Of a DNA stretch of 64,000 nt, positions 5,178 through 52,533 are shown one piece after another (position 1 is the stretch's first letter; each line of letters begins with the position of its first letter). Origin of the DNA: Candidatus Gilichinskyi gelida (GTDB taxonomy: Bacteria > Acidobacteriota > Thermoanaerobaculia > Gp7-AA8); NCBI GenBank assembly GCA_038040385.1, contig JBBPII010000021.1, positions 36,614 to 100,613 of the forward strand, read 5' to 3'. Under the pieces are notes generated by a model. The model did not search any database. It was not told the origin of the DNA and worked only from the letters and a program-made list of their open reading frames with translations. A program made the position numbers and the translations under genes.

Positions 5178-5233
5178 CCAATGCAGGACGGGCTTCAGCC
5201 CGTCGTCTCGTCCGGACGGGCTGAAGCCCGTCC
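5178..5233. repeat. Family C hairpin element, tandem pair (caatgcag-GACGGGCTTCAGCCCGTC-gtctcgtcc-GGACGGGCTGAAGCCCGTCC)
   Basis: Two 18-nt perfect hairpins (7-bp stem GACGGGC/GCCCGTC, 4-nt loop) in opposite loop orientation. The M15A gene stop TGA sits in the first loop. The pair lies between the M15A and GCS2-like genes and is a possible terminator. Confidence 0.8.
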
Positions 5234-5917
5234 TACATCGTCCCCCGCGCGCCGCTCCCGCCTCCTGCGGTCCTCGAACGCGAACCGCGGACGGGCTTCC
5301 TGCGGTACTTCCATCCTGTCCTCGCTGATCTCCCGGGGGACGACTGTGATGTAGCCGAGGTCGACGTGGACATGATCGTCGGCGGTGTTGCCGGTGACGT
5401 GGCCGAACGGATAGACGACGATGTCGTCTGAGACGCCCTCGGCCACTTCGTTGAACTTCTCGATCGTGTCCTTCGTCTTCAGGATGGTCGCGCCGATGCG
5501 GTAGACGTCGGCGGCGGTGCCCCACATGTGCGGCGTGGCGTGCGTCGACATCTTGTGCATCGGCGAGCGGTAGCCGCCGTTGACGGCGACGTGCACCGAG
5601 GCGCCGGCGGCGGCGCGGAACTGCTCGAGGTAGAACGCCAGCACGCGGACGGCGCACGGGATGTAGCGGGGAAACTGCTGGAGCCGCTCCGCCTCCCGGA
5701 GGTCGACGAGGATGAATTCGTTGAGGCCGAAGTGCGGCGTCAGGCGGATGGCCTGCGCCGCTTCGTGCGACGGTACTTCGTAGAAGTATCGCGGGAGGCG
5801 ATGGCGGCGTTTCTGTTCGTCGAGCAGCATTTCGCCCGGTTTGAGGAGGGTGCGCAGCTCGTCGTCGAGGTCGCAGGCGTCGATCACTTTGATCGACTCG
5901 CCAAGGCCGTCACTCAT
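5195..5917 (-). CDS. peptidase M15A-like (YcbK/DUF882 or VanY-type Zn D,D-peptidase fold) protein
   Basis: NGGYRSPMHK...STHATPHMWGTAADV...DHVHVDLGY corresponds to the SGYRS / SxHxxGxAxD / HxH zinc-ligand motifs. There is no signal peptide. The low-complexity tail runs into a hairpin repeat. Confidence 0.55.
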   Translation of the reverse strand: MSDGLGESIKVIDACDLDDELRTLLKPGEMLLDEQKRRHRLPRYFYEVPSHEAAQAIRLTPHFGLNEFILVDLREAERLQQFPRYIPCAVRVLAFYLEQFRAAAGASVHVAVNGGYRSPMHKMSTHATPHMWGTAADVYRIGATILKTKDTIEKFNEVAEGVSDDIVVYPFGHVTGNTADDHVHVDLGYITVVPREISEDRMEVPQEARPRFAFEDRRRRERRAGDDVGRASARPDETTG

Positions 5918-22334: not shown

Positions 22335-23258
22335 ATGCCCTCCGACGCCATCCTCTGCCGCAGTCTGAAAAAGTACTACGCCGACGTCAAAGCGGTCGAC
22401 GGGCTCGAGCTCTCCATCGCCGCGGGCGAGTGCTTCGGCCTGCTGGGGCCCAACGGCGCGGGCAAGACCACCACCATCGAGATCCTCGAAGGTCTCACCC
22501 CCGCCGATTCCGGCGACGTGGAGATCCTCGGCATGACCTGGCGCCGCGACGAGCGCGCGCTGCGCGAGCGCATCGGCATCTCGCTGCAGGAAACGCAGCT
22601 CGCCGAAAAACTGACCGTGCTGGAGACGCTACGCCTCTTCCGCTCCTTCTACCGCAACGGCCACGACCCCGACGAACTGCTCCGCGACCTCTCGCTCGAC
22701 GAGAAGCGCGACGCGCGCGTCGGCAAGTTGTCCGGCGGACAGCGTCAGCGCCTCGCCGCGGCCTGCGCGCTGGTCGGCGATCCCGACATCCTCTTCCTCG
22801 ACGAGCCGACCACCGGACTGGATCCGCAGAGCCGCCTGCAGCTCTGGGACGTGGTGCAGCGCTTCCGCCAGAAGGGCGGAACGGTGCTGCTGACGACGCA
22901 CTACATGGAGGAGGCCGAGCGCCTCTGCGACCGCGTCGCCATCATCGACCACGGCCATCTCATCGCCCTCGGAACGCCCGCGGAGCTGATCGGAAAGCTT
23001 GAGGCGCCGCACATCATCGAGTTCACCAGCGAGCCGCCGCTGTCCGAAGACATCTGGAAACGCCTCCCCGGCTGCCACGGCATGACGGCCAAGAACGGCT
23101 CGTGGATGCTGCGCGTCGACTCGCTCGCCGACGCCGTCCCGAAGCTGCTGGCGACCATCGACGAGCAGGGGTCGAAGCTGGTCACGCTGTCGACGCACGC
23201 GGCGACGCTGGAGGACCTTTTCGTGTCGCTGACGGGGAGGGAGCTGCGCGATGCCTAG
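22335..23258 (+). CDS. ABC transporter ATP-binding protein (ABC-2 exporter type)
   Basis: Walker A GPNGAGKTT, Q-loop, signature LSGGQRQRL, Walker B ILFLDEPTTGLD. Confidence 0.85.
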   Translation: MPSDAILCRSLKKYYADVKAVDGLELSIAAGECFGLLGPNGAGKTTTIEILEGLTPADSGDVEILGMTWRRDERALRERIGISLQETQLAEKLTVLETLRLFRSFYRNGHDPDELLRDLSLDEKRDARVGKLSGGQRQRLAAACALVGDPDILFLDEPTTGLDPQSRLQLWDVVQRFRQKGGTVLLTTHYMEEAERLCDRVAIIDHGHLIALGTPAELIGKLEAPHIIEFTSEPPLSEDIWKRLPGCHGMTAKNGSWMLRVDSLADAVPKLLATIDEQGSKLVTLSTHAATLEDLFVSLTGRELRDA

Positions 23259-24294
23259 CGAGGTCCGCCCCGCCCTCATCGAGCTCACCTCCGTCCGCAC
23301 CAAGGAGTTCCTGCGCGAGACCGAGGCGGTGTTCTGGGTGTTCGGGTTCCCGCTGATCCTCGCGCTGGCGCTCGGCTTCGCCTTCCGCGACAAACCGCCC
23401 GACCGCGTGCCGGTCGCGGTCATCGAAGGCCCCGCGGCGGCGGAGCAGCTCGCGGCGCTGAGCAAATCGCCGGCGTTGATCCCGCGGGTGATGAAGGAGG
23501 CCGACGCGCGCGAGGCGCTGCGGCACGGGAAGGTATCGGTGGTCATCGCCAACGACGCGAAAGGCGTCGTCTATCGCTTCGACCCCACCCGCCCTGAGGC
23601 GCGCGTGGCGCGCCAGGACGCCGACGACGCTCTGCAGCGCGCGCGCGGACGCCGCGACGTCGTGCCGGCGCACGAGGAGCACGTCCGCGAGCAGGGCGCG
23701 CGCTACATCGACTTCCTCCTCCCCGGCCTGCTCGGTATGAACCTGATGGGCACCGGCATGTGGGGGATGGGATTCACCATCGCCAACGCCCGGATGAAGA
23801 AGCTGCTCAAGCGCCTGGTGGCCACGCCGATGCGCAAGAGCGACTACCTCCTCGCGCAGTTCCTCTCGCGGCTGCTCTTTCTGATCGTGGAGACGACGGT
23901 GCTCGTTGCCTTCGGCTGGCTGGTGTTCGGCGTGCGGGTGAACGGATCGATCCTGCTGCTGATGCTGACCTGCATCGTCGGCGGCTACGCCTTCTCCGGC
24001 ATCGGCCTGCTGACGGTGTCGCGCGCCAAGACGCTCGAAGCGGTGAGCGGGATGATGAACCTGATCATGGTCCCCATGTGGATCTGCTCCGGCATCTTCT
24101 TCTCGTACGAGCGCTTTCCCGAGACGGTGAAGCCGGTGATCCGCGCGCTGCCGCTGACGCTGCTCAACGACGCGCTGCGCATGGTGATGAACGACGCCGC
24201 GGGGCTCGCTGAAGTCGCCCCGCGGCTTTTGGCGCTGGCGGTGTGGGGCGTGGTGTCGTTCCTGATCGGATTGAAGATCTTCCGGTGGCAGTAG
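23251..24294 (+). CDS. ABC-2 family transporter permease
   Basis: Six-TM ABC-2 permease pattern. It overlaps the ATPase gene by 8 nt. Confidence 0.75.
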   Translation: MPSEVRPALIELTSVRTKEFLRETEAVFWVFGFPLILALALGFAFRDKPPDRVPVAVIEGPAAAEQLAALSKSPALIPRVMKEADAREALRHGKVSVVIANDAKGVVYRFDPTRPEARVARQDADDALQRARGRRDVVPAHEEHVREQGARYIDFLLPGLLGMNLMGTGMWGMGFTIANARMKKLLKRLVATPMRKSDYLLAQFLSRLLFLIVETTVLVAFGWLVFGVRVNGSILLLMLTCIVGGYAFSGIGLLTVSRAKTLEAVSGMMNLIMVPMWICSGIFFSYERFPETVKPVIRALPLTLLNDALRMVMNDAAGLAEVAPRLLALAVWGVVSFLIGLKIFRWQ

Positions 24295-24305
24295 AGAACT
24301 AGGAA

Positions 24306-24398
24306 CGCCGCCGTCCCGGCGGCTGGCCGGGCGGCGTCCCGCCGCCCGCGCAGGCGAGGACGCCTGCGATCCAGCCGGCGTGGACGCCGGCGCTCCAC
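24306..24398. repeat. Family B ~93-bp MITE-like element, copy B1 (intergenic, convergent ABC permease/OMP)
   Basis: cgccgccgtcccggcggctggccgggcggcgtcccgccgcc...ccagccggcgtggacgccggcgctccac. Terminal inverted repeat is ~GCGCCGGCGTCC/GGACGCCGGCGC. About 85% identical to B2. Confidence 0.75.
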
Positions 24399-24402
24399 GC
24401 GA

Positions 24403-25071
24403 TCAGAACCGGAAGTACACCCCCGCGTTCGTTTCTCCCTGGTAGAACTGGCGATCGTTGTTGTAGGAGCAGACGCGGCAGAAGTCGTCGTTCGGCACAG
24501 CGGTGTAGTAGCCGCGGGCCTCGAGGCGCAGCCCGACGTTGTTGCCGAACGGCACCTTCACGCCAATGCCGCCGGAGGCGGAGAAGCGGTTCTCGGAGGT
24601 CGCGCCGGCGATCTCGGGGTTGAGGTTGGCGACACCGGCGCTGACGACGAAGTACGGCGTCGCCACGCGGCTCCGCGCGAACGGGACGATCAGTCCCGCG
24701 TGGTAGTAGGTGATGTCGAAGTCGGCGATGCGGTCGCTCGGCAGGAACAGCCCGCTGCCGGCGGTGAGGTGCGTGTCCTGACGGTTGACCATAAACTCGA
24801 TCTTGAATCCGTCGTTGCCGATGGGGACGGCGAAATTGGCGCCGTAGTTCATGCCGCTCTCCGCTTCGACGTCGCCGGTGAAGCCGGTCTGTTCGGAGAA
24901 GAGGGTGCCGCCGTAGCGGTAGCCGATGAACGGCGTCAGCTCGAAGGCGTTTTCGTTGCTGCGATAGCGGCGGTCGTCGCGGCCGCGACGGTTGCGCCAG
25001 TCATCTTCCTGAGCGAAGAGCGCGACGGGAAGGGCGAGGGCGAAGAGGGACAAGGCGAGCAGTTTTCTCAT
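24403..25071 (-). CDS. outer-membrane beta-barrel protein (OmpW/OmpA-like small porin family)
   Basis: Signal peptide MRKLLALSLFALALPVALFA. The rest shows an alternating amphipathic beta pattern and ends in ...GVYFRF (a C-terminal Phe). Confidence 0.6.
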   Translation of the reverse strand: MRKLLALSLFALALPVALFAQEDDWRNRRGRDDRRYRSNENAFELTPFIGYRYGGTLFSEQTGFTGDVEAESGMNYGANFAVPIGNDGFKIEFMVNRQDTHLTAGSGLFLPSDRIADFDITYYHAGLIVPFARSRVATPYFVVSAGVANLNPEIAGATSENRFSASGGIGVKVPFGNNVGLRLEARGYYTAVPNDDFCRVCSYNNDRQFYQGETNAGVYFRF

Positions 25072-28232: not shown

Positions 28233-28290
28233 CAGTGTAGCGGCGCTCGCTTCGGGCGCCGGCGGCCGAAGCGGCCGCCGCTACACGTCT
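28233..28290. repeat. Family D hairpin element, copy D1 (coordinates approximate)
   Basis: gtgtagcggcgctcgcttcgggcgccggcggccgaagcggccgccgctacac: 11-bp outer stem GTGTAGCGGCG/CGCCGCTACAC with inner GC-rich stems. Confidence 0.7.
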
Positions 28291-46370: not shown

Positions 46371-47991
46371 GCCGCAGCGCCACGATCTCGCCGCGGTGTA
46401 ATCCGAGAAAGCTTCTGAAGGGATAGCGCCCGACGACGGTGTACCCATCGAGCGGGCGAAAGGCGATCGCGTATGCGCGAGGCGGATGGCCGCGCCGCGC
46501 GACGGCGACCGGCGCGTCGGCCAGTTCGTAGAAGCCGAACGCCTCCGCGCCGCCGTCGATCTGCGCCGCCGCCACGCCGCGCGCGCGCAGATCGTGGAAC
46601 GCCGTCCACCGCGCGCGCTGCCAGCGGAAGTACTCCTGCACCGACAGCGTGGAGAAGACGGCGATGGCGATCAGCCCGGCGGCGGCGATTCCCCGCGCCA
46701 GCCGTTTCTGCCACGGCACGATCAGCGGCAGAGCGATCCCCACCGCCCACGCCGAGTCGAGCGAGTAGCGATCGTAGTAGTAGCCGGACGCGAAGAGCGC
46801 GAGAGTGCCCAGCGCCGCGGTGAGGATCGCCAGGCGAAGAGCGATGCTCCCCGCGGCGAAGACGCGGATCAGCGCCCACACCAGCAGCGTCGCCAGAAGG
46901 GCGCTGAGAACGGTGAGGACGATGCGGCCGGCGGTGCCCAGTCCGAACGGATACGGCAGCCCCAAATTGAAGGTGTCGAAGAGAAGCGGCGTGCCGATGC
47001 CGAAGTCGAAGAGGATGTTGCCCGGCAAGATGTCGGAGTAGAGCGACCGCGTGGTGTATGGCACGAAGTAGCCGGCGCGCGCCAGATCGAAGACCCGGAA
47101 GCCGACCACGCCGGCGATGATCGCCAGCGGCACCGCATCACGCATGCGCAGGCGGGCCAGGAGGACGACCAGCGCGGCGCTCAGCGGCAGAAAGAAGAGC
47201 GCGCAGTTCTGCGCGTTGAAGATGACGTAATGATCGAGGACCGAGATCTGCTGGGGAAGCCGGAAGCTCGACTCCTGCCACATCCGGTAGTGCACGGCGA
47301 ACATCTTCGGCGTGCCGCTCAGCCACGCCGGCTTCAGCAGCCACACCATGCCGAACAGCGCGACGAATGCGGCGATCACCGCGGCGAACGACCGCCAGCG
47401 CGGCGGCCGGTACATCAGGAGCAGAAGGAACGGCGCGCCGAGCAGGTAGAGGCCGTTCTGGCGCACGAAACAGGCCACAGCCACCGCCGCGCAGCCGGCG
47501 ACGAGCCACGACATCCGCTCCTCCTGCAGCGCGCGGACGAAGAAGTAGAACGCCACGGCCGAGGCGAACACGAACGGGACGTCGGTCATGTAGGTGCACG
47601 ACGCCCAGAGGAAGATCGGATGAAACAGCAGGGTGAGCGTGGCGAACATCCGCACGCCGCGCGCCGCGCCGGCGCGGGCCAGGGTGCGGTCGACGATCAG
47701 CAGCGTCGCCAACGAGAGCGTCAGCGTCGAGGCGCGCAGCACGTTGAACGACTCGCCGAACACCCACGTCCACGCCGCGCCCCACAAGACCTGCGCGCGC
47801 AGCGAAACGGCGGTGAACTCGGTGAAGTGAAAGTGCCCCGTCCGCGCGAAGTTCAAGGTGGCGATGGCGAAGTCCCAGTCGTCGTGCAGCGGGAAGTCGC
47901 CGCGCGGCGAGACGACGGCGATGGCCGCGGCCCACACGGCGGCGATGAGCGCGAGCTCACGTTTATCCTGATGCCGAGCGGAGCGAGGCAT
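46351..47991 (-). CDS. GT-C-fold membrane glycosyltransferase-like protein (PMT/ArnT/DUF2142-like)
   Basis: About 12 TM segments. The ATG start (cat at 47989-47991) and first ~10 codons lie within repeat A4, overlapping the upstream yfhO stop (ATGA). Confidence 0.5.
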
Positions 47992-48058
47992 CAGGATCTG
48001 GTGCCCACCTGCGCACGTGGGCGCCAGATGCTCCGGCGCTTCGCGCCGAAGCATAAAC
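47961..48058. repeat. Family A element, copy A4 (TTTATCCTGA subtype)
   Basis: gtttatcctgatgccgagcggagcgaggcatcaggatctg-gtgcccacctgcgcacgtgggcgc-cagatgctccggcgcttcgcgccgaagcataaac. It contains the yfhO-1 stop and the start of the downstream GT-C gene. Confidence 0.75.
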
Positions 48059-50402
48059 TCAAGACGGCCGCAATTGACGCGGCCAGCCCAAGATAGAACG
48101 TCAGCGGGAAGTAGTGAACGCGGACGTCCCACTCTCCCGGCGGCACGGTGAAGCCGAGGAACGGGCCGTTGACCGGCTGCGGCGCGACGCGGCGGCCGTT
48201 GCGCGTCACCCGCCACCCCGGCCACCACGGCTGGCTGCTGACGATCAGCGCGTGGCGCGGCGCGCGGATGTGGAGGAGGAAGTCGGTCGGATTCGCCTCC
48301 ACGATCGTCACCGACGGCTCCGGCGCCGTGAGCGGACGCGGGAGGAGGAGGTCGAGGCGCATCCGGTCGCTGTCGACCAGCAGGGTCTTCACCACCGCGG
48401 TCCGCGAGAAATCCTTCTGAGCGACCAGTCGCTGCACGAAGCGATCGCCCTTGAACTCCAGCACGATGTTGCGCGCGGGATAGAAGCGCGGCAGGACGTC
48501 GGTGTTCTCGAAGATGCGGCCGTCGCGGCCGTCGTAGACCAGGTGGAAGCGCTGCGGGTCGCGCATCTCCAGGTTGTGCGCGCCGACGACGTACTTCACG
48601 TTGAGGTAGTCGAGCAGCCGCGAGTCGAGGTCGTTCCACTTGGCGAAGTAGTCGTCGGTATTGACGTTTGCCATCAGCCGCAGCGCGCCGAGGTAGCGGC
48701 CGTTGGCCATCGGATCGTGCGCCCGGACGTCCTCGAAGCCGTAGATGGCATTGGTGTTCGGAAACAGCGCCGGCCCAATGCCGATGACCCGTGTAGGGGC
48801 GCCCGCTCCGGGCGCCCGCAGCTCAGCGAGTTTGTCGATCAGCGGCGTGCGTGGATACATCGCGCTCGCCGGGAGAACCGGATTCCACCCCGCGGCGGCC
48901 GCCCACAGCTCGCCGACGACCGCCGTGGCGAGCACACACGCGCCGAGATCGCGCCAGCGCACCGGCAGCGCGAGTAGCGCCGCAGCGGCCAGGGTGATGA
49001 TGCTCGGGAACATCGCCAGCATCGCCATGTCCACCGCCGCCTGCGTCGGAAACGCCGTGGTCATCACCAGATAGAGGAGGCCCGCGCCGGTGATGCCGAC
49101 CCCCGTCAGCAGCCAGACCGGGCGCTCGCGGCGGGTGATGTCGACGATCGCCGCCGCCATCAACGCGATGACGAAACAGAACAGCAGGCGCAGGCGCGCG
49201 TTCGCCGCCAGGCGGAAGACGAAGTGGAAGAACGACCCGACGCCCGGCCAGTCGAGGATGACGGCGAGCACGAACAGCGCGGCGACGACGAAGAAGAACT
49301 CGCGGTCGCGGAAGCGCCGCAAGGCGATGGCGCGCAGCAGCAGCGCGAACCAGGCCGCGACGCCGAGCGCGCCGGCGAAGCCGCTGATCGACTCCGCGGC
49401 CGGCGCGGTGCTCCACGGCTTGTCCGCCGGCAGATGACCGAAGAAGTGCGGCTGGAAGAGCACGATCATCGACGGGAAGTCGGAGAAGGGGACGTCGACG
49501 TTGAGCTGCGGATTGGCCTTTAGCTCCTGGTATCTTTTCGACTTGGTCACTGCCTCGGCGAAGGTCGCCAGGAACGGCGCGGCGACGATGGCGGCCACGG
49601 CGATGGCGCCGGCCAGCGCGCCGATCGCGCGCCACCCACCTTTCCGCTCCACGAGCACGATCCATAGTCCAAACAGCCCGCAGAGCAGCGTGACGTGCGA
49701 GACGGTCTCCGGGTGTCCGCCGAACAGCATCACCGCCCACACCACGACGGCGAAGACGAAGCGCGCGTATGTGCGCCGCTCGAAGAGGAGGTCGACGGCG
49801 AGCATGGCCGCCGGCAGCCAGACGCCGACGGTGACCAGCGGAAAGTGCAGCCATGTATTGTTGAACGTGCAGAAGGCGAAGCAGATCGCGCCGACGGCGC
49901 TCGGCAGCTCGGCGTACCGCCGCCGGCCCAGCAGGTACATGAACGTCAGCGCGATCAGCAGCTTCATCGCCGCCTCGGCGGTCATCGAGTAGCCGAGCGG
50001 CAGCGGCAGCGCGAGGAGGCGAATCGGCGACAGCGCCGAGCTCTGACCGTTCGCCAGCAGCGGGTAACCGGCTCCGGAGAGGTGGTTCCACAGCGGGAAG
50101 TGCAGCGAGCGCCACGACGCGCGAACCTGGTGGGCCCACGGTACGATCTGCATCGGCAGGTCGTTCATGATCGGATTCGAGGGATGCGGCCGCGCCCCCA
50201 CTTCGCTCCACGGCGGCAGGATGCGGACGAAGTCGACCGGGACGTTGACCGCGTCCTGGGTCATGGGGCGGAAGAGGAACAGAAGCACCAGAACGTAGAA
50301 GAACGCGGCGACGCCCCACGGCAGATCGACGCCCCGCTTCCGCGCGAGCCAGACGGCCAGCGCGTAGAGCGCGGCGACGTACAGCCAGGTGGGGTTAAAC
50401 AC
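47991..50402 (-). CDS. YfhO-family membrane protein, paralogue 1
   Basis: Long polytopic protein homologous along its whole length to the upstream paralogue: ...NPTWLYVAALYALAVWLARKRG...PMQIVPWAHQVRASW...PFLATFAEAV.... The inferred GTG start at 50402 overlaps paralogue 2's stop (GTGTTTAA). The YfhO family assignment is from memory of its size and topology. Confidence 0.65.
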   Translation of the reverse strand: MFNPTWLYVAALYALAVWLARKRGVDLPWGVAAFFYVLVLLFLFRPMTQDAVNVPVDFVRILPPWSEVGARPHPSNPIMNDLPMQIVPWAHQVRASWRSLHFPLWNHLSGAGYPLLANGQSSALSPIRLLALPLPLGYSMTAEAAMKLLIALTFMYLLGRRRYAELPSAVGAICFAFCTFNNTWLHFPLVTVGVWLPAAMLAVDLLFERRTYARFVFAVVVWAVMLFGGHPETVSHVTLLCGLFGLWIVLVERKGGWRAIGALAGAIAVAAIVAAPFLATFAEAVTKSKRYQELKANPQLNVDVPFSDFPSMIVLFQPHFFGHLPADKPWSTAPAAESISGFAGALGVAAWFALLLRAIALRRFRDREFFFVVAALFVLAVILDWPGVGSFFHFVFRLAANARLRLLFCFVIALMAAAIVDITRRERPVWLLTGVGITGAGLLYLVMTTAFPTQAAVDMAMLAMFPSIITLAAAALLALPVRWRDLGACVLATAVVGELWAAAAGWNPVLPASAMYPRTPLIDKLAELRAPGAGAPTRVIGIGPALFPNTNAIYGFEDVRAHDPMANGRYLGALRLMANVNTDDYFAKWNDLDSRLLDYLNVKYVVGAHNLEMRDPQRFHLVYDGRDGRIFENTDVLPRFYPARNIVLEFKGDRFVQRLVAQKDFSRTAVVKTLLVDSDRMRLDLLLPRPLTAPEPSVTIVEANPTDFLLHIRAPRHALIVSSQPWWPGWRVTRNGRRVAPQPVNGPFLGFTVPPGEWDVRVHYFPLTFYLGLAASIAAVLSLCFGAKRRSIWRPRAQVGTRS

Positions 50403-52533
50403 GGGCGCGGATGATATACGCCGCCAGCGCGAGAGCCGTGGCCAGCGCGACGGCGAACGCGGCGTAGATGTGCAGCGGACGATAGCGGACGCGGACGACG
50501 TGATGTCCGGCGGGGACGTCGAACTCAACGAACGGAGCGCCGGCGTCCCGCCGGCTGGCCAGGCGGCGTCCCGCCGCCGCGGGCGGGGACGCCCGCGAGC
50601 CAGCCGGCGAGGACGCCGGCGCTCCACTCACTTGCCACCCCCGCGCCCACCCGACCGTGCTCATGATCCGCGCGGGTTTCGCGGCGTCGATGACGAGCGT
50701 GTAATCGGTCGGCGTAGCTATAGTAACGGTTACTATAGCGCCATCGGAGTAGAACCGCGGCTTGGCGTTCCGGTTCTCGTAAAGGCGTCCGTCGGGACCG
50801 TCGTAGCGAAGAACGTACGGCGCATCGCGTCCCGGCTCGGTTAGAACCCAGCGGAAGTCCTTCGCCTCGGTCCACTTCACGTAGTAGTCGTTCGCGTTCA
50901 GACCCATGGCCTGGACGTAGCGCGCCGGCACCATCGGGTCGTGGAAGCGAACGTCCTCGATGCCGAAGATGACGTTGGTATTCGGGAAGAGCACCGGGCC
51001 TATGCCCACCACCTGCCCGCGCACTTTTGTCACCGCATCGATGAGCGGCGTGCGCGGATAGAACGTGCTCGCCGAGCGGACGGGATTCCATCCGATGGTG
51101 ACCGCGCAGATCTCGACCGTCACCGCCAGGAGAACGAGCATCGGCGCGAACCGCCAGCGGAAGAACATCGCCGTGGCGACGACGAGTGCGATCGCGCTCG
51201 GCACGGCGCCGGCGAAGCCGAAGTGCCGGCCGACGTACAGCAGCACCGCCGCCCCGAACGCCAGCCCCACGCCGAGCGCGACACTCCGAACGCGCTCGAC
51301 CAGCGCCGCCGTGAGCACGGCCAGCATGAACGCGAGGAGAAACCGAAGGCGCATATTCGCGGCGAGGCCGAAGACGACGTCCGCCACGCGCGTCGCCGGA
51401 TGCCAATTGGCTAGCACCAGAAAGACGAACAGCGACGCGGCGACGAAGAAGAGCTCCGCGCGATTTCGTTTGCGAACCGAGTCGATGGCCACCGCCAGCC
51501 ACGCCGCGATCCCCAGGATCCCGGCGAAGCCGGTGATCGACTCCGCGCCGGCGGGGTTCTGGCGGCCGAACAGCCGCGGCTGCGCCAGCAGCGCCAGCGA
51601 CGGGAAGTCGGAGAACGGCACCTCGCGGCTCCACTGCTTCACCTGCTGGTAGCGATACGACTGCGGGATGGCCTCCCCCATCGCCACCAGCAGCGGCAGC
51701 GCAAGCAACACAGCGACCATCGCCGCCGCGGCAAATCGCCCCAGCGACCGCGGATGCATCACCAGCGCGTAGAGCGCCGCGAATGCTGCGATGTGCAGCC
51801 CGGTCTCCGGATGCCCGCCGAAGACCACCAGCGCTCCGGTCACCGCCATGAACGCGAATCGCGCAGGTGCCTGCCCTGAGCGAAGCCGAAGGGTCCGCGT
51901 CTCCGCGAGCAGGTCGATCGCATACAGCACCGCCGGCAGGAACACCGCGGTCGTGGCGATGGCGAAGTGCAGCCAGACGATGACGAACGGCCCGAAGCCG
52001 AAGCAGATCGCCGCCAGCACGCTCGGCACGACGCCGTATCCGCGTCGGCGGCAGTAGAGAAAGGTGAAGGTGAGCGCGATGAGGATCTTCATCGCCCCTT
52101 CCGCCGTGATGGCGTACTTCAGCGGCAGCGGCAGCGCGAGCATCCGCAGCGACGAGAGCGCCTGCGCCTGCCCGTTGCCGAGGAGCGTGTAGCCGCAGCC
52201 GGTCAGCTCGTTCCACAGCGGCAGCCGGCCGTGGCGCCACGCCTCGCGCACCTGGTGCATCCACGGCACGAGCTGCATCGGCACGTCCTGGGTCTCGAAG
52301 TTCGAGACCTGGTACTTCGTGAATCCCGGCGCGCTCGCCGACCACGGCGGGATGAGCTTCGGGACGTCGGTGGCGATGTTGACGAAGTCGCCGGTCATCG
52401 GCCGGAAGAGGAAGGCGACCGTGAGGACGTAGAAGAGCAGCGCCACGCGCCGCGGCAGCTCGACGCCGCCGCGCCGCGCCAGCCACACCGCCAGGGCGCA
52501 CAGCGCGCCAACGTACAGCCAGGTGACGTTCAT
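50395..52533 (-). CDS. YfhO-family membrane protein, paralogue 2 (carries an in-frame repeat-B insertion near its C-terminus)
   Basis: The start is MNVTWLYVGALCALAVWLARRGG (cat at 52531-52533). Relative to paralogue 1, the C-terminal region gains ~28 aa (APASSPAGSRASPPAAAGRRLASRRDAG) encoded by repeat B2. Confidence 0.65.
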   Translation of the reverse strand: MNVTWLYVGALCALAVWLARRGGVELPRRVALLFYVLTVAFLFRPMTGDFVNIATDVPKLIPPWSASAPGFTKYQVSNFETQDVPMQLVPWMHQVREAWRHGRLPLWNELTGCGYTLLGNGQAQALSSLRMLALPLPLKYAITAEGAMKILIALTFTFLYCRRRGYGVVPSVLAAICFGFGPFVIVWLHFAIATTAVFLPAVLYAIDLLAETRTLRLRSGQAPARFAFMAVTGALVVFGGHPETGLHIAAFAALYALVMHPRSLGRFAAAAMVAVLLALPLLVAMGEAIPQSYRYQQVKQWSREVPFSDFPSLALLAQPRLFGRQNPAGAESITGFAGILGIAAWLAVAIDSVRKRNRAELFFVAASLFVFLVLANWHPATRVADVVFGLAANMRLRFLLAFMLAVLTAALVERVRSVALGVGLAFGAAVLLYVGRHFGFAGAVPSAIALVVATAMFFRWRFAPMLVLLAVTVEICAVTIGWNPVRSASTFYPRTPLIDAVTKVRGQVVGIGPVLFPNTNVIFGIEDVRFHDPMVPARYVQAMGLNANDYYVKWTEAKDFRWVLTEPGRDAPYVLRYDGPDGRLYENRNAKPRFYSDGAIVTVTIATPTDYTLVIDAAKPARIMSTVGWARGWQVSGAPASSPAGSRASPPAAAGRRLASRRDAGAPFVEFDVPAGHHVVRVRYRPLHIYAAFAVALATALALAAYIIRARV
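50538..50630. repeat. Family B element, copy B2, inserted in frame in yfhO paralogue 2
   Basis: gcgccggcgtcccgccggctggccaggcggcgtcccgccgccgcgggcggggacgcccgcgagccagccggcgaggacgccggcgctccac. Confidence 0.75.

Follow-up and report, generated by a model that had tools for sequence, protein, structure and literature searches.

Rickettsia palindromic elements (RPEs) are AT-rich elements of alphaproteobacteria. Neither for these nor for the CGTC-type REPs (repetitive extragenic palindromes) is a dedicated transposase known (PMC3733652). Clusters of REPs inside genes encode 43–82 residues; REPs recur at about the same site in the recB genes of Xanthomonas, and repair genes are often targeted (PMC3733652). 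Here we describe a palindromic repeat of Acidobacteriota, one copy of which (copy A) lies in frame inside a gene for a YfhO-like membrane protein. The copy was found in a stretch of 64,000 nucleotides from Candidatus Gilichinskyi gelida (contig JBBPII010000021.1, positions 36,614 to 100,613), here called the window, which has a GC content of 66%. Copy A is likely to be a non-autonomous palindromic element of the REP/REPIN type (REPINs being inverted pairs of REPs) that was inserted into this gene. The features at the insertion site, in window positions, are:

50534–50625, minus strand: copy A, which in the frame of yfhO paralogue 2 encodes G637 to about P667 (GAPASSPAGSRASPPAAAGRRLASRRDAGAP)
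50626–50634, minus strand: nine junction bases, CAAGTGAGT on the gene strand, of which the final GT may be the element's (GTGG foot)
50395–52533, minus strand: the host gene, yfhO-like paralogue 2, encoding a membrane protein of 712 aa with a GT-C fold
47991–50402, minus strand: yfhO paralogue 1, immediately downstream of paralogue 2 (PF09586, E 7.8e-17)

Comparison of orthologous sequences confirmed that copy A is an insertion into coding sequence with the frame kept. The site is occupied in the window and at locus L002, and it is empty at five independent orthologous loci (L001, L003/L004, L108, L109 and L110). The empty allele reads TGG-GCTCCGTCGAAGCCGGGGGTA-TTCG and the occupied allele TGG-CAAGTGAGT-[92-bp element]-G-TTCG. 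The element, the nine bases 50626–50634 and base 50533 stand in place of 21 nt (GCTCCGTCGAAGCCGGGGGTA); the site has grown from 21 to 102 nt and is thus longer by 81 nt, or 27 codons. Alignment of occupied with empty alleles showed no target-site duplication at the junctions of copy A. The close orthologues P0003–P0011 (75–90% identical in the alignment) show GWARGW-(A/V/T)PS(K/R/D)(P/E/Q)GV-FV.F at the site. Among close orthologues the 28-residue peptide of the window recurs in P0002 alone, which comes from an independent JGI metagenome. We read the segment as an insertion: a single gain, in the common ancestor of both occupied lineages, accounts for this distribution far more parsimoniously than repeated precise losses would. 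The same junctions are present in two independent assemblies, a metagenome-assembled genome (MAG) at NCBI and a JGI contig, and an assembly artefact is therefore ruled out. The right end of the element shares seven nucleotides, GCTCCGT, with the empty site, a match indistinguishable from chance; as a clean insertion point they were rejected, since a 15-nt deletion would still be needed.

The original prediction, made from the window alone, had proposed an alignment of orthologues as the way to refute an insertion; the five loci without the segment upheld it. It had also set the roughly 28 added residues against the segment NGRRVAPQPVNG of paralogue 1. The proper comparator is the seven-residue APSKPGV of the orthologues, and the net gain is 27 codons. 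The suggestion of an ‘active or recent’ element is unsupported: the insertion is older than the separation of two lineages that differ by 11% in their flanking DNA. At the distant orthologous loci L107 and L111–L113, the site holds a longer, unrelated beta-hairpin segment, like that of paralogue 1. As far as the alignment can tell, this longer hairpin is ancestral, and the paralogue-2 clade had cut it to seven residues before the insertion.

Copy A is 92 bp long, begins with GGAGCGCCGGCGTCC, ends with GGACGCCGGCGCTCC and has a GC content of 88%. Its perfect terminal inverted repeat (GGAGCGCCGGCGTCC) is 15 bp long, and its self-complementarity spans nearly the full length, not the ends alone. 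Copy B, elsewhere in the window, is 95 bp long with 84% GC and is identical to copy A in 83 of 95 aligned columns (87%). The RNA fold of copy A has a minimum free energy of −95.4 kcal/mol (z = −9.4), with about −95 kcal/mol for either strand (z of −9.4 and −8.0), and that of copy B has −77.1 to −84 kcal/mol (z about −6; −5.9 at −77.1). For both copies, 0/200 shuffles were as stable. Stop codons are absent from all six frames in copy A and in copy B. An nhmmer profile built from the two copies, which recovers them with E-values of 1e-18 to 1e-22, revealed no third full copy in the 64-kb window, and no Rfam family matched anywhere in the window at gathering thresholds. The two copies had been predicted correctly as such. 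Their boundaries had to be moved 4–5 bases to the left (from 50538–50630 to 50534–50625 and from 24306–24398 to 24302–24396), and the terminal inverted repeats, given as 12 bp, are 15 bp and perfect in copy A. The intergenic location of copy B was borne out; it fills the gap between convergent genes for a permease and an outer-membrane protein:

24302–24396, no strand assigned: copy B, intergenic, between convergent genes
23251–24294, plus strand: ABC-2 type transporter permease gene, its TAG 7 nt ahead of copy B
24403–25071, minus strand: outer-membrane beta-barrel protein gene, its TGA 6 nt past the end of copy B

Such a position between convergent open reading frames (ORFs) has been described as typical of REPs (PMC3733652).

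We searched GTDB, with one genome per species, for the exact arm pattern (CCAGCCGGCG, 0–1 nt, GGACGCCGGCG) and worked with 8-kb stretches; the full-length set, the in-frame counts and the copy numbers derive from the arm-pattern matches listed (more than 102 stretches). The exact 21-mer arm occurs in more than 102 stretches of GTDB representative genomes, and 82 stretches among the matches listed bear titles of the Acidobacteriota type (Thermoanaerobaculia, Terriglobia, Holophagales and unclassified). Pattern matches in Streptomyces, Blastococcus, Rubrivivax and other genera lack support from the family profile and were dismissed as chance matches in GC-rich DNA. Over the listed loci the family profile gave 96 matches, of which 36 cover the full length. 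One MAG of 6.3 Mb accounts for at least 13 full-length copies among the matches listed; the 64-kb window has two. Judged by these matches, the family is widespread in MAGs of Acidobacteriota. Copies in many Acidobacteriota genomes, together with presence/absence polymorphism, substantiate the dispersed repeat family that had been postulated from the window.

The folded structure was analysed in an alignment of 30 full-length copies. The dispersed element measures about 95–105 bp. It has a closing stem GGAnC/GnTCC in which n covaries (CG 14, AU 6, GC 4), and two positions outside this stem are often complementary (T..A or C..G), which yields GTGG/GTAG or CGG feet. Some members of the family have GTGG before the element (L009 has GTAG), the others CGG or ACGG. 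Inside the closing stem are four hairpins with variable, covarying stems and conserved loops; the loop is GTCyC in the first two (H1, H2) and GrGAC in the last two (H3, H4). The left half (H1–H2) and the right half (H3–H4) are inverted copies of each other. In copy A, the hairpins (no strand assigned) are:

50539–50555: H1, GCCGGCG-TCC-CGCCGGC
50562–50578: H2, GGCGGCG-TCC-CGCCGCC, with compensatory changes in 3/6 pairs
50579–50596: H3, GCGGGCG-GGGA-CGCCCGC, with compensatory changes in 5/5 pairs
50603–50620: H4, GCCGGCG-AGGA-CGCCGGC

H4 is invariant in this sample because the search pattern fixed it, and it is thus uninformative. A model with the closing stem and four local hairpins (95.1% of cells paired, covariation score 0.185, 0/500 shuffles) scores slightly above one with a long stem and a Y-shaped tip (91.7% of cells paired, covariation score 0.144, 0/500 shuffles). 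Compensatory changes were found in 10–11 pairs, and slid controls were 32–61% paired. The local H1 pair at columns 18:26 is kept in 30/30 copies (CG 22, GC 8), whereas the long-range partners alternative to it are mismatched in 22/30. As CGTC is present in every loop, membership in the CGTC-tagged REP families (PMC3733652) was considered. It was rejected: in those families the foot carries the tag and the first positions of the stem are A/T, unlike in the present elements.

A partner gene was looked for by a motif scan of 4,638 ORFs across all loci. It revealed an HUH/Y1 protein at one locus only (L019, 5152–5730), with the motifs NHVHVMV (HVH), WQREYFDR and YIEANP. This protein matches Pfam Y1_Tnp with 37.6 bits (cut-off 23) and the NCBIfam model of the REP-associated tyrosine transposase (RAYT; REP_Tyr_transpos) with an E-value of 2.3e-20 and 73 bits. 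It has thousands of homologues, many of which are named RayT (JGI) and several of which come from MAGs of Thermoanaerobaculia; nearly all were seen on one contig each. Class 3 RAYT proteins have been reported from Acidobacteria (PMC6006769). By its motifs the L019 protein groups with the class 2 (TnpA-REP-like) proteins of the same study, not with class 3, since WQ and YI..NP are present.

The RAYT gene is flanked by the halves of the element. At L019, L114, L116 and L117, a left half (foot-H1-H2) lies about 60–130 nt upstream of the gene and a right half (H3-H4-foot) follows directly after its stop codon, the outer sequences being complementary (at L116, GCGGAACGCCGGCG... upstream and ...CGCCGGCGTTCCGC downstream). 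L115 differs: its upstream element is complete, and past the stop there is no more than an H4 arm. The halves thus bracket the RAYT gene in the manner described for REPtrons and REPINs (PMC3116915, PMC6006769), and the dispersed element of about 95–105 bp therefore corresponds to the same arrangement minus the gene. The gene neighbourhood of the RAYT (L019, 5152–5730; L114–L117, 1501–2079) is conserved and comprises a dynamin-like GTPase, a class II aminoacyl-tRNA synthetase and RNase J. RAYT homologues on one contig each, in conserved synteny, are as expected for a vertically inherited, domesticated transposase. Three MAGs (DATLOL01, CAWGHO01 and DASPMO01) contain both the RAYT gene and dispersed copies.

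Copy A is not the only in-frame copy of the family. At least 6 of 35 independent full-length copies (about 17%), that in yfhO paralogue 2 included, are intragenic and in frame; a junction case at L103 comes in addition. A copy was called in frame if the ORF was open through the element and a coding signature in third-position GC content (GC3) was present on both sides; for four loci there are Pfam domains on both sides. The other in-frame copies are:

L032: in-frame copy in a C-methyltransferase, with Methyltransf_13/23 before and Methyltransf_14 after it
L106, 3137–3241: in-frame copy with LigB before and RidA after it
L009, 925–1025: in-frame copy in an Lhr helicase, splitting the WH_Lhr domain
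L057: in-frame copy in an orthologue of yfhO paralogue 1, at a site that differs from that of the yfhO-2 insertion
L035: in-frame copy in a membrane protein of 728 aa, called from GC3 only

Both orientations and all phases are used by the in-frame copies, so that the family has no dedicated coding frame and a preferred one was ruled out. The number of open frames per copy is 5.2 on average, with 4.6 in shuffles, and the lack of stop codons is largely due to the GC content of the family (81%). The survival of in-frame copies is best explained by selection that filters for stop-free insertions, a multiple of three in length, in permissive loops.

Several of these loci show further peculiarities. 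The copy at L032 (3495–3653) is a variant of 159 nt with extra central hairpins, which encodes 53 in-frame residues where the Methyltransf_14 domain begins. At L103 (5022–5129), an element joins the frame of a Phd/YefM antitoxin and that of a ParE toxin in one ORF, and at L106 the element links a LigB dioxygenase domain to a RidA domain. From their sequences, L103 and L106 may represent repeat-mediated gene fusions. The yfhO-2 orthologue P0004, from which the insert studied here is absent, contains a further two hairpin repeats in frame. The first has GCGTCCCGC loops (L003, 10748–10850; −94 kcal/mol), and the second is rich in GTTGCC (L003, 11105–11190; −65 kcal/mol). Further inserts are present in P0008, P0009 and P0011, which makes yfhO-2 a repeated target. 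In the winged-helix loop of Lhr (AQQIVA.CA...GWDEDE), the family is found in L009 and P0245 and as a half copy in P0246; P0241, P0243, P0248 and P0255 have unrelated inserts of 20–80 residues at this loop. The sequences compared mark the Lhr loop as an insertion hotspot. A second comparison of occupied and empty alleles at this loop was dropped, as there are different inserts in almost every orthologue and no unambiguous empty allele.

On the gene strand, paralogue 1 starts with a GTG located 3 nt upstream of the host gene's TAA stop. At NCBI, an Acidobacteriota MAG has a hypothetical protein (P0001, AABO58_24615) to which the product of paralogue 2 is identical. Its homologues are YfhO-family (PF09586) proteins from Thermoanaerobaculia and other Acidobacteriota, and those with 44–86% identity carry PF09586 or the YfhO name. 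A search of the paralogue 2 protein against Pfam gave no YfhO match even at an E-value of 0.01. The YfhO match is found in paralogue 1 and many orthologues, and the precomputed match is absent in some orthologues without the insert, too. Only the C-terminal 70 residues or so of these proteins match the YfhO profile well, and this is the part that copy A interrupts. Inserts of this kind give rise to ‘hypothetical’ proteins and may make domains harder to recognise, although for paralogue 2 this cause of the missing Pfam match is unproven.

The reading frame is open through copy A into 44 C-terminal codons (FVEFDVPAGHHVVRVRYRPLHIY... and the terminal transmembrane helix), which are homologous to paralogue 1 and conserved in all orthologues. 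Predicted peptides of YfhO paralogue 2 that come from the insert or lie beyond it include APASSPAGSR, ASPPAAAGR and those of the stretch FVEFDVPAGHHVVR. An AlphaFold2 model of the protein, computed from an alignment of 54 sequences, has a pTM of 0.88 and matches the GT-C glycosyltransferases AftD and ArnT. In the model, residues 637–667 form a loop between the beta strands 633–636 and 671–673 of the C-terminal beta domain, before the last transmembrane helix, and pLDDT is below 50 for residues 642–655 and 659–662. The insert is probably a disordered loop rich in Ala, Pro, Ser, Arg and Gly, and by analogy with GT-C enzymes the domain that holds it would face outwards. The original prediction was right in placing copy A within the C-terminal part of YfhO paralogue 2 without a break of the frame, which runs on into the 44 conserved codons, and it quoted the inserted peptide correctly. 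The loop position that it proposed to check is indeed what AlphaFold2 predicts, at low confidence.

The junction between the two yfhO genes (window 50392–50415, minus strand; ATCATCCGCGCCCGTGTTTAACCC) comprises the end of paralogue 2 (...IIRARV), its TAA and the GTG of the next gene. It is identical in 11/11 loci, including L107 and L111–L113 with orthologues of only about 50% protein identity. Conservation of the nucleotide sequence far above coding constraint alone makes the junction a candidate signal that may serve translational coupling.

Two more repeats were seen in the window. At 5181–5238 lies a REPIN-like pair of hairpins in inverted orientation, both tagged with GTAG (GTAGGACGGGCTTCAGCCCGTC), whose arms of 24 nt show 96% complementarity; this REP family is other than that of copies A and B, and the stop codon of the ORF at 5195–5917 (minus strand) falls inside the pair. 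A third hairpin repeat, at 28235–28286 (GTGTAGCGGCG...CGCCGCTACAC), has 26-nt arms and a GTAG foot and is located between two ORFs of the same strand.

To follow the gene after the insertion, yfhO-2 of the window was compared with that of L002. The divergence at codon positions 1/2/3 is 7.0/4.2/22.6%, and in the 44 codons past the element there are 2/0/11 differences. This bias towards third positions, which includes the downstream codons, indicates purifying selection on the frame beyond the element since the insertion. The element itself has hardly changed: 91 of its 92 nt are identical, compared with 88.9% for the rest of the gene (binomial P = 2.4e-4), and 0/32 third positions are changed inside it, compared with 22.6% in the flanking codons. 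The sole difference is a C to T exchange that keeps a G-U pair on the mRNA strand. As the flanks adjoining the element are 86.7% and 90.6% identical and thus not unusually similar, a recent recombination tract is unlikely. The conservation of the element could be due to constraint on its structure or sequence or to conversion from other copies, between which the data do not separate. Strong conservation relative to the host gene bears on the question of whether intragenic REPINs are tolerated or used.

Four other explanations were weighed against an inserted REP/REPIN-type element. The segment could be ancestral coding sequence or a local duplication that resembles the intergenic repeat by chance, and low-complexity stretches rich in Ala, Pro and Arg do arise easily in high-GC genomes. 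This has virtually no chance of being correct: the segment is absent from five orthologous loci at 77–90% protein identity, outgroups show an APSKPGV-like segment or the longer unrelated beta-hairpin, and the similarity is one of nucleotides, copy B being identical in 83 of 95 columns and the profile matching dozens of copies from other genomes. A MITE (miniature transposable element with inverted repeats) of the classical kind, that is a deletion derivative of an insertion sequence (IS) with a DDE transposase, mobilised in trans via its terminal inverted repeats and leaving a target-site duplication, would account for the small size, the multiple copies and the perfect 15-bp ends of copy A. 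The junctions, however, show no direct repeat and host bases have been lost; the inverted symmetry extends across the whole element; and in 5/5 loci examined the halves flank a Y1/HUH gene, not a DDE gene. We consider a classical MITE highly improbable. The name MITE had been used in the original prediction and is not retained in its strict sense, because a missing target-site duplication, 21 replaced nucleotides and halves that flank a Y1/HUH RAYT point to REP/REPIN elements instead. Alternatively, the insertion may have killed the gene, the open frame being an accident of 88% GC, with yfhO-2 a pseudogene or its functional end lying before the element. The missing Pfam match would be in line with this, and a hairpin of −95 kcal/mol could impede expression. 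The purifying selection seen past the element disfavours a pseudogene, the C-terminal transmembrane helix is preserved, as is the conserved stop/start junction with paralogue 1, and orthologues without the insert can lack the precomputed match as well; a dead gene is improbable.

The fourth explanation does not dispute the insertion but holds that the intragenic copy is now kept for its DNA or RNA structure, as a barrier to 3′–5′ decay, a translational pause or a control of polarity. The element lies 132 nt upstream of the start of paralogue 1. The near-identity of the window and L002 copies, the unchanged third positions and the retained G-U pair speak for such exaptation, as does copy B, which at 87% identity to copy A in the same genome makes wholesale homogenisation not obvious. 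Against it, the comparison is that of one sequence pair, and unseen conversion from a master copy or RAYT-dependent maintenance would give the same pattern. Exaptation is a possibility that we doubt. Only tentatively do we propose that the intragenic copy is under protein-independent nucleotide constraint, maybe co-opted in the tandem yfhO operon, and that it belongs to an Acidobacteriota REPIN–RAYT system with about one-sixth of the copies translated.

For the inserted REP/REPIN-type element, to which we return, the class features are as follows. Inverted REP pairs able to fold as one hairpin and presence/absence polymorphism without target-site duplication are those of REPINs; a RAYT flanked by the same REP sequences, as in a REPtron, exists in related genomes; and the in-frame insertion into a gene under purifying selection, with a presumably functional product and the insert in a predicted loop, is that of an RPE. 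Of the features of MITEs with terminal inverted repeats and target-site duplication, copy A has the terminal inverted repeats; ends of a DDE-transposase IS were not found, the only bracketed gene seen being that of Y1_Tnp/RAYT. Some points weigh against this assignment. There was no clean cut-and-paste, as 21 host nucleotides are gone, and 7–9 nt at one junction have no identified source. Copy A bears a GT[AG]G foot at a single end (GTGG, gene strand), and about half of the family has such a foot. The NCBIfam RAYT score of 73 bits is below the curated cut-off of 80, and a tblastn search for a RAYT gene, confined to the 64-kb window, was negative.

In the proposed course of events, a RAYT would mobilise the hairpin DNA as single strands, as the literature on IS200/IS605 and REP systems suggests, and this would leave no target duplication. 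Mobilisation of the whole family by RAYT is likewise suggested by these known systems. One event would have struck a short, already variable loop between two C-terminal beta strands of YfhO paralogue 2. The gene would have stayed open thanks to a stop-free element of 88% GC and a net length divisible by three. Going by the reading frame, translation of the element into the loop is predicted, and the insert would then be harmless there. Selection would have kept the gene, with the insertion inherited by at least two diverged lineages.

The phenomenon as such is already known from Rickettsia RPEs and from intragenic REPs (PMC3733652). New are the phylum, the four-hairpin architecture with conservation in the loops, the link of an often-translated family to a RAYT, and the conservation of an intragenic copy at the nucleotide level. 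The family enters genes in frame repeatedly (YfhO twice, Lhr helicase, C-methyltransferase, LigB-RidA), and its cognate RAYT can be identified in the same genomes. This ties the ‘translated palindrome’ phenomenon to the REPIN–RAYT mechanism in a large, poorly studied soil phylum. If about one-sixth of the copies are indeed translated, RAYT-driven hairpins would be a regular source of new protein loops and even of gene fusions (Phd-ParE, LigB-RidA), and the family would be a tractable model for the movement of RPE-like coding palindromes.

Among known systems, the REPIN–RAYT systems, REPtrons and BIMEs (bacterial interspersed mosaic elements) of Pseudomonas fluorescens and E. coli (PMC3116915, PMC3337134, PMC6006769) share with this family the GC-rich hairpins whose inverted pairs form a larger hairpin, and the dispersed copies, often no more than 20 nt from the 3′ ends of convergent genes, as with copy B. 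They also share the single-copy Y1/HUH RAYT (HuH, WQ, YI..NP) with the same flanking hairpins and conserved synteny, and the lack of target-site duplications. In contrast to them, the present family has two hairpins per half and hence four per unit, a conserved motif in the loops (GTCyC) and a GT[AG]G foot that is only partly conserved; its hosts are Acidobacteriota, not Proteobacteria; and about one-sixth of the sampled copies are intragenic and in frame, whereas REPINs are described as extragenic. Coding-region MITEs (Correia/NEMIS and the QMITEs of Coxiella, PMC5896051; reviewed in PMC10969869 and PMC2229807) are likewise small, non-autonomous, bounded by inverted repeats and occasionally translated in frame. 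They are derived from DDE-type IS and have terminal inverted repeats and target-site duplications, whereas here there is no such duplication and the partner is a Y1 tyrosine transposase.

REPs of the GTAG and CGTC types inside genes of Opitutus terrae, Thauera, Xanthomonas and Stenotrophomonas (PMC3733652) resemble the present copies in being dimers or groups within ORFs, with 20–30 residues, in often affecting genes for DNA repair or helicases, and in recurring near one site in orthologues, to which the Lhr loop hotspot is a parallel. They differ in phylum and lack the four-hairpin architecture. That survey does not include the present family and mentions Acidobacteria solely for RAYT-like genes with long terminal inverted repeats on either side (PMC3733652). 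The comparison with Rickettsia RPEs drawn in the original prediction is apt, given the repeated in-frame copies; the behaviour is less exceptional than was implied, because in-frame intragenic REPs had already been documented outside Rickettsia (PMC3733652). Like RPE-1 to RPE-8 of Rickettsia (cited in PMC3733652), the elements are palindromes of about 100 bp that occur in frame in unrelated protein genes, lengthen the product by a few tens of residues but do not destroy it, and have coding as well as non-coding copies. Going by host phylum and composition (88% GC here), membership in the RPE families is implausible and a relation in sequence is not to be expected; the analogy is a functional one. 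The two are also set apart by the associated RAYT and the free-living host with a large genome. In short, the family works like a REPIN and behaves like an RPE.

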